This document shows, one piece after another, positions 4,130 to 59,379 of a stretch of DNA of 64,000 nucleotides. Position 1 is the first letter of the stretch. Each line of letters begins with the position of its first letter. The notes under the pieces are model-generated. The model was not told the origin of the DNA and made no database searches. It saw only the letters and a list, made by a program, of their open reading frames with translations. A program made the position numbers and the translations under genes. The stretch lies in NCBI RefSeq assembly GCF_036365525.1, contig NC_090394.1:22679327-22743326 (forward strand), read 5' to 3'. Source of the DNA: Heterodontus francisci (lineage: Eukaryota).

Positions 4130-5662
4130 ATAAGAACTAGGAGCAGGAGTAGGCAATTCAGCCCCTCGAGCCTGCTCCGTCATTCAATACGATCATGGCT
4201 GATCTCATCTCAGCCTCAACTCCACTTTCCTGCCCATTCTCCATAACCCTTCAACCCATCACTAATTAAAAATCTGTCTAGCTCCTCCTTAAATTTACTC
4301 AATGTCCCGGTATCCACCACACTCTGGGGTAGTGAATTCCACAGACTCACGACCCTTTGAGAGAAGTAATTTCTCCTCATCTCTGATTTAAATCTGCTAC
4401 CCCTTATCCTAAATCTATGACCTCTCGTTCCAGATTGTCCCACCAGAGGAAACATCATCTCTATGTCTACTTTGTCAATCCCCTTAATCATCTTATATAC
4501 CTCAATTAGAACGCTCATTCTTCTAAATTCTAGAGAGTAAAGGCCTAAAATGCTCAATCTCTCTTCATAAGACAAATCCCTCATCCCTGGAATCAATGTA
4601 GTGAACCTCCTCTGAACTGCCTCCAATGCAACTACATCCCTGCTCAAGTAAGGGGACCAAAACTGTACGCAATACTCCAGGTGCGGTCTCACTAATGCCT
4701 TGTACAATTGCAGCAACACTTCCCTACTTATATATTCTATTCCTTTAGCAATAAATGCCAAAATTCCATTTGCCTTCCTTATTACCTGCTGCACCTGCAA
4801 ACTAGTTTTCTGCAATTTGTGCACGAGGACACCCAGGTCCCTCCGCACGAAAGCACTCTGAAGTTTCCTCCATTTAGATAATAATTTGCCTTTCTATTCT
4901 TCTGACCAAAATGGATAACCTCACACTTATCCACGTTAAACTCCATCTGCCAAATTTTGGCCCATTCACCTAACCTATTCATATCCATTTGTAAATTTCT
5001 TATTTCTTTATTGCAACTTACTTTCCCACCTATTTTAGTATCATCTGCAAATTTGGCTATAGTATCTTCTATCCCTGCATCCAAGTCATTATATAGATTG
5101 TAAATAGTTGGGGCCCAACGACCGAACCCTGTGGCACCCCACTAATTACATCTTGCCAACCAGAAAAAGACCCATTTATCCCGACTCTCTGTTTTCTGTT
5201 GGTTAGCCAATCCTCTATCCAAGCTAATAAATTGCCCCTAACCCCATGTGATCTTACCTTGTGTATTAACCTTTTGTGTGGCACCTTATCAAATGCCTTC
5301 TGGAAGTCCAGATATACAATATCTACAGGATCCCCATTATCCACTTTACTTGTTACATCTTCAAAGAACTCTAGCAAATTAGTCAAACACGATTTACCCT
5401 TCATAAAACCATGCTGACTCTGATGGATTGCGTTTTGACTTTCTAAATGTCCTGTTATTACTTCCTTAATAATGGATTGTAACAATTTCACAACGCCAGA
5501 TATTAAACTAACTGGTCTATACTTTCCTACTTTCTGCTTCTCTCCTTTTTTGAATAAGGGCATTATATAAGCATTTTTCCAATACACTGGAACCTTTCCC
5601 ACATCCAGGGATTTTTGGAATATTACAACTAATGGATCCACTATCTCCATTGCCACTTCCTT
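4130..5662 (-). mobile_element. CR1-type LINE ORF2 (RT) with frameshifts, 5'-truncated
   Basis: ORFs 5069-5704, 4782-5084 and 4216-4848 give YRPVSL, QHGF..KSCLTNL, YLDFQKAFDKVPH, GVPQGSV, KFADDTK, LEYCVQFW. Confidence 0.92.
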
Positions 5663-6640
5663 GTGAAGAAGACATACTGGTCTCTGCATTTTGGAGCAGA
5701 ACAATAAATTATTGAATTAAGTTCAGATAAATTTAACAGACATTCTGGAGAAAAGCAGGCTGTAAGGTATGAACTACCAGGTTGTGGCCTCAAGCGGGCT
5801 TTAAAGAGGGAACCATCACTTTGTGGCCTCAACCAGGCCATAAGAAGGGGCCCATTGGGGTGCAGCCTGAAAGCAAGCTGTAAGAGAAGACACCAAGTGG
5901 TGGCAGTTAGAGAGAGAGAGGGAACACCTGCCCTCTGAAGATATACAGCAAATGGATGTGGAGCAAAAACAAGAAATGCTGGATTCACTCAGCAGGTCTG
6001 GCAGCATCTGTGGAAAGAGAAGCAGAGTTAACGTTTCGGGTCAGTGACCCTTCTTCGGAACTGACAAATATTAGAAAAGTCACAGATTATAAACAAGTGA
6101 GGTGGGGGTTGGGCAAGAGATAACAAAGGAGAAGGTGCAGATTGGACCAGGCCACATAGCTGACCAAAAGGTCACGGAGCAAAGGCAAACAATATGTTAA
6201 TGGTGTGTTGAAAGACAAAGCATTAGTACAGATTAGGTGTGAATATACTGAATATTGAACATCAGCAAGTGCAAACCTGAAGAAAAACAACCTGAAAAAA
6301 ACAGTGGGTAAGCAAACTGAACAAACTAAGAAGAAATGAAATAAATGCAAAAAAAATTGTAAAAAATGTAAAAAGGAATGCAAAAAAAAAAGGAAGAAAA
6401 AATAACTAAAAATGAAAGTAAAGTGGGGGGCTGTCATGCTCTGAAATTATTGAACTCAATGTTCAGTCCGGCAGGCTGTAGTGTGCCTAATCGGTAGATG
6501 AGATGCTGTTCCTCGAGCTTGCGTTGATGTTCACTGGAACACTGCAGCAATCCCAGGACAGAGATGTGAGCATGAGAGCAGGGGGGAATGTTGAAATGGC
6601 AAGCAACCGGAAGCTCAGGGTCCTGCTTGCGGACTGAGCT

Positions 6641-7600
6641 GACACTTCCCTTCCCTTCCTCGACTTCTCTGTCTCCATCTCTGGGGATAGGTTGTCTACC
6701 AATATCCATTATAAGCCCACTGACTCCCACAGCTACCTCGACTACACTTCTTCACACCCTACCTCCTGTAAGGACTCCATTCCATTCTCTCAGTTTCTCC
6801 GTCTCCGACGCATCTGCTCTGATGATGCTACCTTCCATGACGGTGCTTCTGATATGACCTCCTTTTTCCTCAACCAAGGATTTCCCCCCACTGTGGTTGA
6901 CAGGGCCCTCAACCGTGTCCGACCCATTCCCCGCACCTCTACCCTCACCCCTTCCCCTCCCTCCCAGAACCGTGACAGGGTTCCCCTTGTCCTCACTTTT
7001 CATCCCACCAGCCTCCATATCCAAAGGATCATCCTCCGCCATTTTCGCCACCTCCAGCGTGATGCCACTACCAGTCGCATCTTCCCCTCCCTTCCCCTGT
7101 CAGCATTCCGAAGGGATCGTTCCCTCCGCGACACCCTGGTCCACTCCTCCATTACCCCCACCACCTCGTCCCCGTCCCAGGGCACCTTCCCTTGCAATCG
7201 CAGGAGGTGTAATACCTGCCCATTTACCTCCTCTCTCCTCACTATCCCAGGCCCCAAACACTCCTTTCAGGTGAAGCAGCGATTTACTTGTACTTCTTTC
7301 AATGTAGTATACTGTATTCGCTGCTCACAGTGTGGTCTCCTCTACATTGGGGAGACCAAGCGCAGACTGGGTGACCGCTTTGCGGAACATCTCCGCTCAG
7401 TCCGCAAGCAGGACCCTGAGCTTCTGGTTGCTTGCCATTTCAACACTCCCCCCTGCTCTCATGCTCACATCTCTGTCCTGGGATTGCTGCAGTGTTCCAG
7501 TGAACATCAACGCAAGCTCGAGGAACAGCATCTCATCTACCGATTAGGCACACTACAGCCTGCCGGACTGAACATTGAGTTCAATAATTTCAGAGCATGA
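6641..7600 (+). CDS. PLE polyprotein C-terminal part: RT thumb, Cys-rich linker, GIY-YIG endonuclease (truncated, no native start)
   Basis: Uninterrupted frame: LPFLD, HYKPTDSHSYLDYTSSHP, SIPFSQFLRLRRICS, CNRRRCNTC, VVYCIRC..C..LYIGETKRRLGDRFAEH, EQHLIYRLGTLQPAGLN. Confidence 0.9.
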   Translation, partial: DTSLPFLDFSVSISGDRLSTNIHYKPTDSHSYLDYTSSHPTSCKDSIPFSQFLRLRRICSDDATFHDGASDMTSFFLNQGFPPTVVDRALNRVRPIPRTSTLTPSPPSQNRDRVPLVLTFHPTSLHIQRIILRHFRHLQRDATTSRIFPSLPLSAFRRDRSLRDTLVHSSITPTTSSPSQGTFPCNRRRCNTCPFTSSLLTIPGPKHSFQVKQRFTCTSFNVVYCIRCSQCGLLYIGETKRRLGDRFAEHLRSVRKQDPELLVACHFNTPPCSHAHISVLGLLQCSSEHQRKLEEQHLIYRLGTLQPAGLNIEFNNFRA

Positions 7601-7971
7601 CAGCCCCCCATTTTACTTTCATTTTTAGTTATTTTTTCTTCCTTTTTTTTTACATTCCTTTTTACATTTTTTACAATCTTTTTTTGCATTTATTTCATTT
7701 CATCTTAGTTTGTTCAGTTTGCTTACCCACTGTTTTTTTCAGGTTGTTTTTCTTCAGGTTTGCACTTGCTGATGTTCAATATTCAGTATATTCACACCTA
7801 ATCTGTACTAATGCTTTGTCTTTCAACACACCATTAACATATTGTTTGCCTTTGCTCCGTGACCTTTTGGTCAGCTATGTGGCCTGGTCCAATCTGCACC
7901 TTCTCCTTTGTTATCTCTTGCCCAACCCCCACCTCACTTGTTTATAATCTGTGACTTTTCTAATATTTGTC

Positions 7972-8008
7972 AGTTCCGAAGAAGGGTCACTGACCCGAAA
8001 CGTTAACT
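7972..8008 (+). ncRNA. Minimal type I hammerhead ribozyme-like motif in the PLE 3' region (mirror copy at 6026-6062, - strand)
   Basis: AGTT-CCGAAGA-A-GGGTCA.C.TGACCC-GAAA-CGTT-AACT: stem I AGTT/AACT, core variant of CUGANGA, stem II, GAAA, palindromic ACGT stem III. Confidence 0.65.
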
Positions 8009-8770
8009 CTGCTTCTCTTTCCACAGATGCTGCCAGACCTGCTGAGTGAATCCAGCATTTCTTGTTTTTGTTTCAGATTTCCAGCATCCGCAGTATTTTG
8101 CTTTTATAAAAGGATGTGGAGATTTGAACCAAAGCTTGCAGAGGAGTGAAGGGTCCACAGGATCACCAGAAATCACACTATCTACGGGTGTCCAGGTTGG
8201 AAGTGCTCGGAGAAGGGAGCAAAGAAAATATTGATTTTTGAAAAGTCTGGGAGATCCAATCGCAACCGGGAGGAGTTTGGGACTTTTTAACCCCAAAGGA
8301 TTTCATCATCAAAAAAGACGGTGTCATGTTTAAGTGTGGTGTGAAATTGTCAAGTGTTGAATAAGTAAAGAAAATACCTTTGTTTGTAATTTAAGGTATC
8401 AGCTACTTACACTGTACTATTTAGTTAATTGGGGATTTCTTTTAGTTTAGTTATAATAAAAGACTTAAAACGTGAAATGTTGTTGAGTAATTTGTTAAAT
8501 TGGTCGGGGGGTTCATAACTTGTATTTTTTTCATGTTAACGATCTTTCTGAGGTTGTAAACAGTCCCCATGAAGCACTGTGATTGCAATGTCTGAATCCT
8601 TAAAGTATAGAGCATGCTTCATGGTCAGTCATAACTTCTGACAAATATCTTAACAATGAGTTAGATTCATGGATGCTGAAGATACAGTGAGCTGTGGTCA
8701 CCTTATGAGTGGAGATATTTATCACAACTCAAGACTGAAAATATTATACAATCCTATTCACTTATGACAA

Positions 8771-24640: not shown

Positions 24641-25698
24641 GGTTGGAGTTTAACCCCCCCGCCCCCGCCAAAAAGGGCAGGCTGGTCGGGGGTGGGGGGG
24701 CAGGGTAAAAATGGAGTGGGAGGCTGGGTTGGGGGGGGCACTTTCTAACTCACTCCTGCCAATTAATGGCCACCTAAGGTTGCCCGCTGCCATGGGATTT
24801 TATGGTTGGCAGGTGGGTGGTCGAAGCCTCAGAAAAGCCACCTAATAAAAGTAGGAGGCCTTCTGACAACTGGGGTTTGGGGCCTCACCTGGGACGATCG
24901 GTCGAGCCCCAGCTGGCAAGGGGGGGTAGGGGTGCTGGGGTAGTAGGGGGTTAGGGTGTCCTGTGCCTGATGGAGGGCTGCCCAACGCCCAACACCTCCA
25001 CCTGCCCTTGCCTTGCTGGGGCTCAACCGATCGCCCCAGGTGAGGCCCCAAATGCTTACCCATTCTCTGGGGCTCCCCGATGTCTTTTTTTTATTTTCAA
25101 AATATACTTTATTCATAGAAATCTGTAATAAAAAAAAAATACATTACCGAACAGTTTCAAACAGCACCAAGTCAAAAAATACAAACAGTGCAAAGGCGGT
25201 CCGTTACCTTCTATACAATCGTGAGTTGCCTCACAACCCTTCCATTTCGTTGTCGTGCCAGATACATTTTACAGCAGACAAAATTTCTCCGATGCAGTTC
25301 GAGGGGTCTCCCATGGATCCAGCCCCCCAGTTCAGCTTGGTGGGGGGACCTTACACTGTGGTCTTTCCCCATTGAGTCTTTGCTGCGGCTGCCCCAAGCT
25401 TTAGTGCGCCCCTCAGCACGTAGTCCTGGACCTCCCCGACATCTTAAGCCTTTAGTTGGGTTGCAGTCCCAGCAGTGGCCACCGCTCCTGGTGGTGGTGC
25501 TGCTGGGACTAATGGAGCTGCCAGCAGCTCTTTGGTGGAACTTCCTGCCTCAATGAGGTGGAAGTCCCACTTAAGACCAATTAAGGGCCCGGGGAGCATA
25601 AAATCCAGTCTGGATCTACCAGCCCGGCAGAGGCAGGATGGCCACTGACTCTTTGGTCGGTGGACGGCCCCCCTCTGGCGACTGTAAAAGTCTGGCCA
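24641..25698. mobile_element. Harbinger-like MITE inside CR1, itself carrying a LINE 3' fragment
   Basis: Imperfect TIRs GGTTGGAGTTTAAC / GTAAAAGTCTGGCC interrupt the CR1 sequence TTACATA|TAGACTGG. Confidence 0.65.
25087..25431 (-). mobile_element. L1/Tx1-like LINE 3' end (shorter copy at ~51817-51920)
   Basis: Minus strand encodes QDYVLRGALKLGAAAAKTQWGKTTV*, then AATAAA and an A-rich tail; ~14-bp TSD CTCCCCGA(TG/CA)TCTT. Confidence 0.7.
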
Positions 25699-33139: not shown

Positions 33140-34385
33140 GTGTTGACTCCACTATATTTCACTATAAACCCACTGACTTCCACAGCTACCTTGACTGCAC
33201 TTCCTCACACCCTCCTTCCTATAAGGATCCCATTCCATTCTCCAGTTTCTCTGTTCCCATTGCATCTGTTCTGGTGATGCAACCTTCCATGCTAGCGCTT
33301 CTGATGAGTAGTATTCCCAAACCGGGGTGGTTTGAAAAGGCCTTTGACCATGTCCATCCCATTTCTCACACTTCTTCCATCCCTCCTAGAACCATGATAG
33401 GGTTCCTCTAGTCCTCGCCTTCCATTCCAGCAGCCTCCATATTCAACGGATCATTGTCAGCCATTTCTGCAACTCCAGTTTGATGCAGCAACCAAACACA
33501 CCTTCCCCTCCCTTTTCAGAATTCCAAAGGGACTGTTCCCTCCACAACGCCCTAGTTCACTCCTTTGATCACCCCCTCCATTTCCCATGGCACCTTTCCA
33601 TGCAAGCACAGCAGATGCAACTCCTACCCTTTTACCTCCTCTCTCCTCAGTGTCCAAGGCCCCAAACACTCCCTCCAGGTGAAACAGCAATTTACGTGAA
33701 CTTTCAATTTAGTATACTGTATTCACTGCTCAAGATGCAGTCTGCTCTATACTGGGGAGACCAAACACTGATTCAATAGCCGCTTTGTGGAACACCTCTG
33801 TTTACTCCAAGTGTGGCCCCAAGCTTCTGATTGCCTGTCATTTTAATTCTCCACCTTGTACTTGTGCTGACCTCTCTGTCCTTGGCCTCCAGCAATGTTC
33901 TAGTGAAGTTCAACTTAAGCTCAAGGAACAACACCTCCTCTTTCGACTGGGCACTTTACAGCCTTCCAGACTCGACATTGAGTTCAACAATTTCAGACCA
34001 TAATCTGTGCCTCCGTTTTTGTTTCCTTTTTTTCTTTGCAGGTTTTGGTTTTACTTTTGTTTTTCACTTTTGGACAGCAGCTGTTCATCGTTCTGCCATT
34101 CACACCCCCTGTAGAGACACCTTTTTTGTTTTTTACTCATCCCATTACCACTCCCTTTGGCCCTGCACCACTGACTCTTGTCATGTCACCTCCCCTGCCT
34201 TCCACTGTCGCAGACCTTCCCTTTTTGTTCTTCGCTTCTCCCTTTCACTTGTTTAAAACCTATTGTATTTCTAACTTTTCATGGTTCTGATGAAAGGTCA
34301 TTGACCTGAAACATTAACTCGGTTTCTCTCTCCACAGACGCTGCCTGACCTGAGTATTTCCAGCATTTTCTGTTTTCATTTTTGA
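33140..34385 (+). mobile_element. Older decayed Penelope-like element with a canonical hammerhead core
   Basis: Homologous to 6700-8075 (YKPTD, GIY-YIG remnant, LGTLQPSRLDIEFNNF); GGTT-CTGATGA-A-AGGTCA.T.TGACCT-GAAA-CATT-AACT at 34283-34319. Confidence 0.85.
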
Positions 34386-34577
34386 TTCCAATCGTTATGC
34401 TCTTATAATTGTTCTAGACTTTATTTAGCTCTATAGTGATCTTTTGGATTTAGTTCTTCTATATTAGAACCCTGAAGATCCAGTTCTATGTTCTGTGTTT
34501 TCTCTTGTATAGGGTTTCTTAAAGAAACAGCCATCCTGTTCTTTAAATGATAACAGCTCTTTGTTTCTATTATGCAG

Positions 34578-34968: not shown

Positions 34969-35888
34969 GTGAGTAATCATGGATCCATGTGCAATTGTTT
35001 GGTCTCTTGGGGGTAAAGTTGCAGAATAGCAGTGACACCCATGTTGCACATGAAATTGAGATTTCCATCAGCTGTCGTGTCATCTTTGTCATAACATCTT
35101 GCAGTAAGAGGTGAAGTGCCAGCATTGCTGTCAAAGTTTTTAACTCTCTAAAGGGCACACTTGATCCAGTGGTAACATACTTGCATAGATTCAGATGCCA
35201 AAGATGGAAAATCTAGTATTTAACAAAAGGAACAATGATGGCGTGAAAATTTTCTCCCACATTCTGACCTAAAATCCCAAAGACTGACTAGCTCAACCTC
35301 TAACAGCTACAGTGTTACTAAGTTAGAATGGCCTTCCCAAGCATAAAGGCACAAAAGGATTGAATGGTCTGAGTCTGTATAAAACTGGGCTTTGTAAATT
35401 AATGAGAAGCCAGCAGCCTGAAATTGCAGAAACTCCTCTTTCCTTAAACTGCAGTAGGGTACCTTTTTAAATGTTGTGGTTATGGTGCTGACTAGTTGTG
35501 AACTTGAATTCAATAAGCCTGGTAAACTGTGGGCTGAGAGCAGGAGAAATCAACATGAGCTCTGCTGCCTTTTCATAAAAGCCCAACTAATATCCTTCAG
35601 GGAAGGGAACCTGCCACTCCTACCCAGTCTGACCTACATGTGACCATACTGCACGGTTCACTCTTAATGCCTCTGAAATGGCCTCGCAAGCCACTTGGCT
35701 GTACAACAATCACTTGGAAAAGTTGTGGGCCAATAAATGAGTTTTGTTAATGTCTCTCACTACTTAAACAAAGTTTTATTTTTTTATTTTTAAGAAACAA
35801 CTTTGGACGGTAAGTAGATAGCGATCTGAGAGTCCCTGTCCCCTCAAATACACTGAACCAGAAGCTCGGGTCGCAGCCTTGAGATAAA

Positions 35889-36020
35889 TAAAAGCAAAAT
35901 ACTGCGGATGCTGGAAATCTGAAATAAAAACAAGAAATGCTGGAACCACTCAGCAGGTCTGGCAGCATCTGTGGAAAGAGAAGCGGAGTTAACGTTTCGG
36001 GTCAGTGACACTTCTTCGGA
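35889..36020 (-). mobile_element. 132-bp PLE 3'-terminal insertion retaining the hammerhead motif
   Basis: Near-identical to the reverse complement of 7975-8107; TSD GCCTTGAGATAAA at 35876-35888 and 36021-36033. Confidence 0.9.
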
Positions 36021-51324: not shown

Positions 51325-53539
51325 AAAGGTCCAGATCTGGTGAGCAAGACTGACATTTTACTTTTGGGATTTGAGCCTGCAACTGATTTGAATAAGATTT
51401 TTAAAATTTGAAGTCCATTACACAAAAGCAATAGTACTTAAACAGGAAGTACTTGAGGTAAATTAAATGATGCATTCTAAAAGAAACTAGACAAGTACAT
51501 GAGAAAGGAATAGAAAGATATGCCAAAGGTAGATGGAATTGGGAGGTGATGGTATAAAAATCAGCAAAGACTAGTTGTTGGGACCAATGGCTTATTTATG
51601 CTATATATACACTAATAACAAACCAAGATCTTAATTGAGGATATTAAGATGTTACAGTTCTGAGCTCAGCATCTTGGGCCTTTAATTGCTATTCTAAAGT
51701 GAAACATGGAATAATTCTAATTGTACCAATTAAAGATTTATGCCAATGTTTACCTTTTAAGAATTCACTAAAAATTATGAATCAATATTCAAAAAGTATT
51801 TTTTTTTGCTTTGAACTTTTTTTATTTCCAAAATATACTTTATTCATAAAAATCTGCAAAAATTACATTGCCAAACAGTTTCAAACAGCACCAAAAAATA
51901 CAAACATTGCAAGGGAGATCAAAAAGTGTATCTTTAAATCTCATTAGTTCATCCTGAAAGTGAGCATTGCTACAGGGTCAGTTCTCACCAATAGTACTTT
52001 AAATTGACTTCCTGAGGAAAAGGACTAATGATAAAACAGTAAAGCATTCAGGACAGCCAGATGAACCCTTACCCTAAAACAGTGGTCTCTCCCTACCAAG
52101 AAACAAGTTGTGGCTTTATAGATTACCAAATTACATCTGTACTGGGAACAGAAAGCTTTTGATTAAGTATTTTTGGAAGTTGAAAAAGCGAAGCAAGCTA
52201 ACTTGTTCCAATAGTAAAGTAAAAACTATCAAGGCTTGGAATTTAAAGTTCTCCACGTTTTAAAATCCCTTCACAGCCTCGCCCCCTCCTCCAGCCCTAC
52301 AGGATCTCAGCATTCCACCATGTCTGGCATCTTCCGCACCCTGCCTATTCACTACTCACTGTCTGCTGTACTTTCAATTACTTAAGCCCCAACCTCTAGA
52401 ATTCCCTCCCTAAACTAAGAAGCTTCTTAAAACTTACCTGCTGACTTCTTAACAGTATTTTATAAGTTTTAAATATTAAACTTAGTACAGAAAAAAACTT
52501 CAGATGCTCAAAATTTAAAATCAAAAAGGCTGGAAAGAATCTGGTCAACAGGCACAGTCAACATTTCAGGTCTGAAACAATACTTTTTTTTCCCCACTGA
52601 TGCCATCTGCCTGGTATTTCCAGCTTTTTCTATTTTGGATTTTAAGCACAATACATCGTTACAAAGCAGGAACAAGGACATTCTGGCGTTGGAGATTGTG
52701 TATTTTTTTTGTTTTGCTGTCTTTAGACAATCGCTTTGATTTGAATGAAGGTTCATCACCCTGACGGATGCCATACTTCCAATTCTTAAGACCTGTAACC
52801 AATAATAAATCAAATTAATACAAGATACAACTAAAATATTACTTTCATGCGCAGCGACAAGTATTTTTTTTTGAAGATGTTGTAAGAGATAAACTTTCAA
52901 AGTTTATTGGCACGCGGGTTTTATTGGCCACAAACTGTACAGAAGTGGGCAATAAGCTTTAGCATGCCATTTAATATAGGCACACTTGTCTTACCGACGG
53001 TAACTAACAACGCCGCTGGTAATTTTCAGAGGGTGCCACATGTCACTGCCGCCCCGACCCAGTTAACAGAACACGTGTTTCCAACTGTTGAACTAGGTCA
53101 GTAAATCTGAAATAAAAACTGGAAATACTCAGCAGGTCTGGCAGCATCTGTGGAGAGAGAAGCAGAGTTAACGTTTCAGGTCATACCAGGATCCAGGTAA
53201 TTATCTGACAACAGCACGAATTTTAGTCATTTCAAATATAACGATGTTGAACAAAAAAAAATACGTTGACGCCATTAACACCAGATTTCAACATTTGCGA
53301 GTTGTATTTTTTCCAAAACAAACACGGTTAAATATTTAGAAAACTTCACCTCGGATACCTTAGAGACAGCTAAACAATCCGCAGCGTCACCTTTTAATAT
53401 GGAGAAAGCTAAAACATGGTGGAATTAAAAATTTTCTTAAGTTTACTGGAGTTTTTTGGAATTAGAAAACGCTTTAGAACTTGAAATTAAAGTAGATTAA
53501 CAATGGAAACCCCTGTTAAGAGCTAAACGTCCCAATCTA

Positions 53540-55728: not shown

Positions 55729-59379
<3,651 letters not shown>

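Follow-up and report, generated by a model that had tools for sequence, protein, structure and literature searches.

PLEs carry well-described minimal hammerhead ribozymes (min-HHRs). In the passages of PMC4209133 consulted here, min-HHRs have the type I topology, a 4-bp helix I, no loop 3 and a GUU cleavage site; they lie in the pseudo-LTR (pLTR), occur as thousands of solo copies and cleave weakly even as dimers. The motif that we analysed, at positions 7972-8008, is alike in fold, helix I, missing loop 3, site, pLTR location and solo copy number. The same passages describe an extra nucleotide after A9, a G10.1-C11.1 pair, a palindromic 15.2-16.2, a short helix I and pairs of motifs on opposite strands. 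The published consensus core is CUGANGA ... GAAA ... UH, to which older subfamilies of the present family conform, whereas position 4 here is C. All 56 of the 56 representatives in Fig. S3 of PMC4209133 have U4 and none is from a cartilaginous fish, although the descriptor-based search behind them may not allow C4. Thus, the motif class is known, most of the features flagged in the original prediction are standard, and only C4 departs from the class.

Two further systems bear on this departure. The Poseidon element PAc of Anolis carolinensis, as described in parts of PMC11167929, also has its motif at the pLTR-ORF junction and a 30-40-nt tail bounded by two internal RT start sites; mutants of its hammerhead had no effect on insertion in vitro, and uncut, unprocessed RNA was the main substrate, as it appears to be here. 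It differs in that the main ATG lies in stem II in PAc and at +173 in our element, which in addition has a CX2-5CxxC linker and C4. A natural viroid U4C variant had considerably lower in vitro activity, yet was viable and infectious (a passage of PMC3088659 citing Ambros and Flores 1998). Unlike our case, the viroid ribozyme is needed for replication, whereas here the motif lacks helix III and a large, expanding family has C4 as its consensus. The role of hammerheads in endonuclease-bearing PLEs is described as unclear in a passage of PMC8557442. Literature searches on U4C or CCGANGA-type cores, shark PLE hammerheads and PLE starts found no C4 in a PLE; Lunse et al. 2017, Ambros and Flores 1998 or supplementary file 1 of PMC4209133 may list C4, and the portions consulted of PMC6765202, PMC6155905, PMC6466107 and bioRxiv 10.64898/2026.07.22.740005 hold nothing on it.

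The window, that is, the whole 64-kb stretch of DNA analysed, contains the following features; stem I, the core letters, the extra A, GAAA, the palindrome and the two U positions are read directly from the sequence.

5956..6642, minus strand: inverted 5'-truncated copy from the same insertion, whose motif (6026-6062) is identical
6638..7600, plus strand: 3' part of the PLE ORF, comprising the end of RT, the Cys linker CNRRRCNTC and the GIY-YIG endonuclease
7601..7971, plus strand: 3' UTR / pseudo-LTR preceding the motif
7943..7974, plus strand: TATAA at 7943-7947 and an initiator-like TCAGTT around A7972, the probable start judging from copy ends
7972..8008, plus strand: minimal type-I hammerhead motif, with a 4-bp stem I, core CCGAAGA and predicted cut at 8004/8005
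within 7972-8008, plus strand: stem I of the motif, AGTT/AACT
7976-7982, plus strand: core C3 C4 G5 A6 A7 G8 A9
7977, plus strand: C4, a derived core change by comparison of copies (U4 in older subfamilies)
7983, plus strand: extra A after A9
7984-7996, plus strand: stem II and ACU loop, 5 bp by folding
7997-8000, plus strand: GAAA of the motif core
8001-8002, plus strand: CG of the stem III palindrome (ACGT, 8000-8003)
8003 and 8004, plus strand: U16.1 and U17
8009..8107, plus strand: remaining 5' segment of the element, in which copies end at 8068-8080 or 8106-8107
33160..34387, plus strand: older relative, 73-75% identical, with a motif at 34283-34319 carrying U4, U7, A10.1-U11.1 and ACAT
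35888..36020, minus strand: solo stub of 133 nt that begins at the equivalent of 7975, with a C4 core and an adjacent 13-nt target duplication
53103..53183, minus strand: older stub, reduced to the motif's 3' half and some of the tail

The sequence at 7972-8008 was checked letter by letter and is as originally read, and its identification as a PLE minimal hammerhead held up. A loose core pattern matched four times in the window against 0.07 expected, and the family pattern matched 71,991 times in the 6.0-Gb genome against 26 for a reversed control, so the motif is not a chance occurrence. The covariance-model search proposed for it gave no support: none of the seven window matches to Rfam models at E<=5 was a hammerhead family. 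Across a sample of 156 copies, which are related and were partly selected by pattern, helix I pairs were kept in 147-151 and helix II pairs in 148-156. Stem II had been drawn as six pairs around one base; folding gives five pairs with an ACU loop, and the would-be sixth pair was the least kept (139/156). Its 'palindromic' character, taken at first for a variant trait, is that of an ordinary hairpin. We also considered stem II as an intermolecular palindrome and rejected it: such pairing is possible at -23.4 kcal/mol, but any hairpin could do the same, and the loop is variable. The extra A after A9 (A in 44/44 young and 21/21 oldest copies) and the ACGT palindrome (CG kept in 125/156 copies, the remainder mostly CpG decay) are both present as predicted; they are not special to this motif, both being published for min-HHRs in the passages of PMC4209133. 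In the older copy at 34283-34319, the reported CTGATGA and AGGTCA/TGACCT were recovered, but its palindrome, a point absent from the original prediction, is broken, since it reads ACAT in place of ACGT. The compensatory change in stem II is likewise real, the first pair being GC in 82, GT in 49, AT in 23 and AC in none of the 156 copies (G7984-C7996 here; G-U or A-U in older copies). Because the sampled copies are related and partly pattern-selected, however, this counts as one historical path through a wobble pair and not as many independent events.

The frame at 6638-7600 terminates in a GIY-YIG domain, although this match and that of RVT_1 in longer relatives both lie below the Pfam curated cut-offs. 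Searching with an N-terminal ORF motif gave 3,905 matches, some of them in arrays whose periods are 3,290 and 3,296 nt. One array consists of three 3,290-nt units, the first two 100% identical, with the C4 motif in each unit and a 916-aa ORF containing DKG (PADKGG), RT, the CNRRRCNTC linker and GIY-YIG. By the description in passages of PMC8557442, the element fits a Neptune-type PLE, with the proviso that Nematis also has the linker motif; it shares with the Neptune clade the single ORF with DKG, RT, CX2-5CxxC linker and C-terminal GIY-YIG, the tandem and inverted 5'-truncated insertions, and the tail. At our locus an inverted repeat (5956-6642 and 7392-8078, 98.4% identity) holds both motif copies. 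Elements of this type usually carry an inverted, 5'-truncated copy at the 5' end, according to the same source, so the opposite-strand pair is ordinary. The original prediction had held that the two copies could not form a dimer within one RNA; this is correct for this locus but not for the family, since head-to-tail arrays place copies on one strand at distances of 3,290 and 3,296 nt. An array unit also contains a 30-codon upstream ORF in the tail region (+56 to +146), before the main ATG, and four AG sites with pyrimidine runs at about +55, +105, +141 and +169, for which no evidence of splicing was found.

We then asked how C4 is distributed. An exact 35-nt pattern with position 4 left free matched 29,545 times, and 95 of the 100 matches listed had C, which makes C4 family-wide, as does its presence in intact arrays; both rule out a private mutation. 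At most 28,247 of the 29,545 exact copies carry C4. T4 was found in 1,298 and the opposite-strand decay product G5>A in 1,161; being roughly equal and strand-symmetric, these counts indicate that T4 in the young subfamily is CpG decay. When 80 long copies (85, less four misaligned and one duplicate) were sorted by upstream divergence, C4 occurred in 41/44, 4/15 and 0/21 from the youngest to the oldest class, and the oldest class had U4 in 20/21 and no G5>A. The possibility that U4 in old copies is itself decayed C4 was rejected, because decay is strand-symmetric in young copies, yet the sample has TG in 67 against CA in 3. Going from old to young copies, T at N7 gives way to A, and A-T or G-T at pair 10.1-11.1 to G-C; C4 travels with C11.1 (CC 76, TT 61 and mixed 15 of 156 copies). 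Thus, C4 is a fixed, derived change common to about 28,000 exact copies and to the intact tandem elements, and it is not general to the hammerheads of this genome, as older subfamilies and two other families have U4. At position 4, the share of T in the summed depth was 27%, 16% and 21% in contigs of organisms A, B and C, respectively, C being the majority; the contigs of organisms E and F covered this position too thinly for a reading. Elsewhere in the motif, one metatranscriptome (X10) had C for T17 at position 8004, with 27% of the summed contig depth, which amounts to a GUC site in relatives. There is also a rare sister subfamily (seven matches), which has the tail in common, U4 in the core and GAGTC/GACTC as stem II, both letters of pair 2 being changed; one member has a GUC site.

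To locate the ends of inserted copies we sampled them by tail motifs without requiring a hammerhead, taking 100 young copies among the matches listed of 60,199 and 95 older ones among the first 100 matches listed of 44,655. The 3' ends of the 100 young copies fell at 8068-8080 in 47 and at 8106-8107 in 53, and these are likely the RT start sites that bound the PLE 'tail'. Among these same listed matches, 33 of the 57 young and 38 of the 61 old 5' ends inside 7960-8028 fell in 7970-7978, while 8002-8008 held one young and two old ends against about six expected; after removal of inverted junctions, 19/28 young and 32/47 old ends lay in 7970-7978, and one of each at the cut. The sampled edge copies among the matches listed had no common upstream exon, and 27 of 99 edge copies had an adjacent target duplication. 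The base before A7972 was G far more often than T (RG 1,568 versus RT 243, 6.5-fold), against a background of 0.226 G and 0.273 T in fetched loci. Twenty G-flanked copies among the matches listed comprised seven inverted junctions, five in which G was the last duplication base, three with G clearly outside the duplication and five unassigned ones. Copying of a capped RNA end adds a G, and the G excess thus points to a capped RNA beginning at the motif. TATAA, 29 bases upstream, and the initiator-like site are presumably promoter elements, although the TATA match is imperfect. Taken together, the copy ends make A7972 the likely first base (+1) of the RNA and suggest that transcription begins with the motif.

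The predicted cut was spanned by 90/100 young and 92/95 old copies among the matches listed. Uncut RNA was therefore the template for inserted copies. To look for traces of cutting, we counted junctions in copies with three upstream bases none of which matches the element, and found 32 starting at 8003, 38 at 8004, 174 at 8005, 26 at 8006 and 78 at 8007. For 8005 we fetched 70 of the first 100 matches listed (of 174), skipping most CGG, CAG and TGG types. Most of them were fold-backs, some through stem I, or slippage with 2-4 bases of microhomology, and among these listed matches 16 of 64 distinct junctions were clean. Clean starts at the neighbouring positions numbered 9 at 8004 (30/38 fetched) and 14 at 8006 (26/26 fetched); at 8007 (30/78 fetched) 18 were distinct, with three clean and two weak inverted calls. 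The raw 8005 excess is thus mostly microhomology. Clean 8005 starts nevertheless extrapolate to about 28 against about 11-18 at the neighbours, about twice as many, and three GTT deletions and three tandem restarts terminate exactly at the cut. These residues hint at rare RNA cleavage, in well under 1% of copies. Short tandem tail repeats of 50-61 nt restart at or beside the predicted cut site, and a stretch of contig C3 (182.78-185.79 Mb) has twelve copies of one inverted stub junction, probably through local duplication.

On balance we lean, with a little better than even confidence, towards the 37 bases being a PLE minimal hammerhead with a derived C4, likely a weak ribozyme, silent for the most part, that sits where the RNA probably starts; insertion likely does not depend on its cutting. 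The predicted cut lies inside almost all inserted copies, so that cleavage is probably weak and jumping probably does not require it. That C4 itself weakens cleavage is suggested by analogy with the viroid U4C result, which is second-hand. Copy ends do not discriminate here, because the U4 subfamilies show the same lack of ends at the cut site. Two observations pull against parts of this interpretation: C4 arose together with G10.1-C11.1, which could offset it, and the 8005 junctions mean that some RNA may be cut. In a working model of the cycle, a tandem unit would be transcribed from A7972 across the 916-aa ORF and on into the unit that follows, so that the RNA would carry two motifs 3.3 kb apart, which could pair through ACGU. 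Reverse transcription would be initiated about 100 or 135 nt inside a unit and proceed leftwards across the uncut motif; a start in the downstream unit would give ORF-pLTR-tail copies like this locus, and a start in the first unit would give stubs of 100-135 nt terminating at the cap. A cut at +33 would strip the cap, and one in the downstream unit would strip the RT start sites; because cutting would thus work against insertion, a weaker core would cost the element little. A bolder extension, which we consider speculative and rather unlikely, makes the hammerhead a brake at the first base of the capped RNA, released by a hypomorphic U4C that helped a burst of about 60,000 copies. If it were true, the cores CUGAUGA, CUGAAGA and CCGAAGA would be a natural series for testing the purpose of PLE hammerheads. 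In any event the family provides intact elements in tandem and a dated switch from U4 to C4, and its more than 100,000 insertions with a tail are a record of the RNA that was copied.

Two other accounts of the C4 motif differ from this weak, mostly silent ribozyme in opposite directions. It may be a fully working ribozyme, dimeric or protein-assisted, with C4 offset by G10.1-C11.1 and with cut RNA that decays or serves elsewhere and is rarely inserted, an account that we hold to be somewhat unlikely while giving it real weight. It draws on the ten other core positions, at which the oldest class differed in 7 of 202 cells, compared with 495 of 2,138 for the upstream pLTR, on the absence of A10.1-C11.1 from stem II, on the same-strand partners in arrays, on the raw junction peak at the cut, and on the anole PLE hammerhead, which cleaves once its protein is added (a passage of PMC11167929). 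It has to contend with at least nine in ten inserted copies deriving from uncut RNA among the matches listed, with the microhomology at most cut-site junctions, and with folding models (which ignore tertiary contacts and protein help) that put the active dimer at -13.7 kcal/mol against -19.9 to -23.4 for three alternative dimers and let stem I pairing drop to 0.01-0.18 in longer contexts. Conversely, the ribozyme could be dead in the young lineage and its sequence kept by overlap with the start site and an RT-bound RNA segment; we judge this unlikely. The majorities of the subfamilies differ at 4/37 motif positions and 5/61 positions in the neighbouring tail, so that the tail is about as conserved as the motif; moreover, the family grew to about 60,000 copies despite a changed core position, and PLE clades without hammerheads proliferate (a passage of PMC8557442). 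But the four motif changes are confined to N4, to N7 (a free position) and to one stem pair in which pairing was retained; a viroid is reported to tolerate U4C (the same passage of PMC3088659), and small residual signals persist at the cut site.

The start itself has a competing explanation, in which 5' ends accumulate at a 3' splice site (CTAAY...AG, 7960-7973) instead of at a transcription start. Old and young copies alike do retain CTAAT/CTAAC, a pyrimidine run and AG, and the Penelope intron of Drosophila (D. virilis) terminates at helix I, according to passages of PMC4209133 and PMC2377424. We nonetheless find it very improbable: copies keep A7972 and G7973 and have adjacent target duplications without a common upstream exon, and no intron-type joint was present among the 15 joints listed, from assembled contigs that are blind to starts, ends and strand (nine more joints are unlisted).

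The genome also holds a second minimal hammerhead family, with a U4 core, an extra A, a GCTG/CAGC stem II and a GUC site, in long tandem repeats near chromosome ends. The repeats are spaced by about 4.6-21 kb and lie within about 0.25 Mb of contig starts (contigs C1, C2, C4, C5 and C7); on C5 the first copy is at 4906, after 690 CCCTAA hexamers. No long RT frame was present on the motif's strand in the four stretches examined, and the family may be a telomere-associated PLE relic. Elsewhere in the window, an H/ACA snoRNA ACA64 match scoring 61.1 bits lies at 52902-53034 on the minus strand, a weak SNORA64/10-like one of 28.8 bits, below threshold, lies at 57587-57719 on the plus strand, and positions 24887-25041 form a long GC-rich hairpin-like stretch whose microRNA model score is below threshold on both strands.
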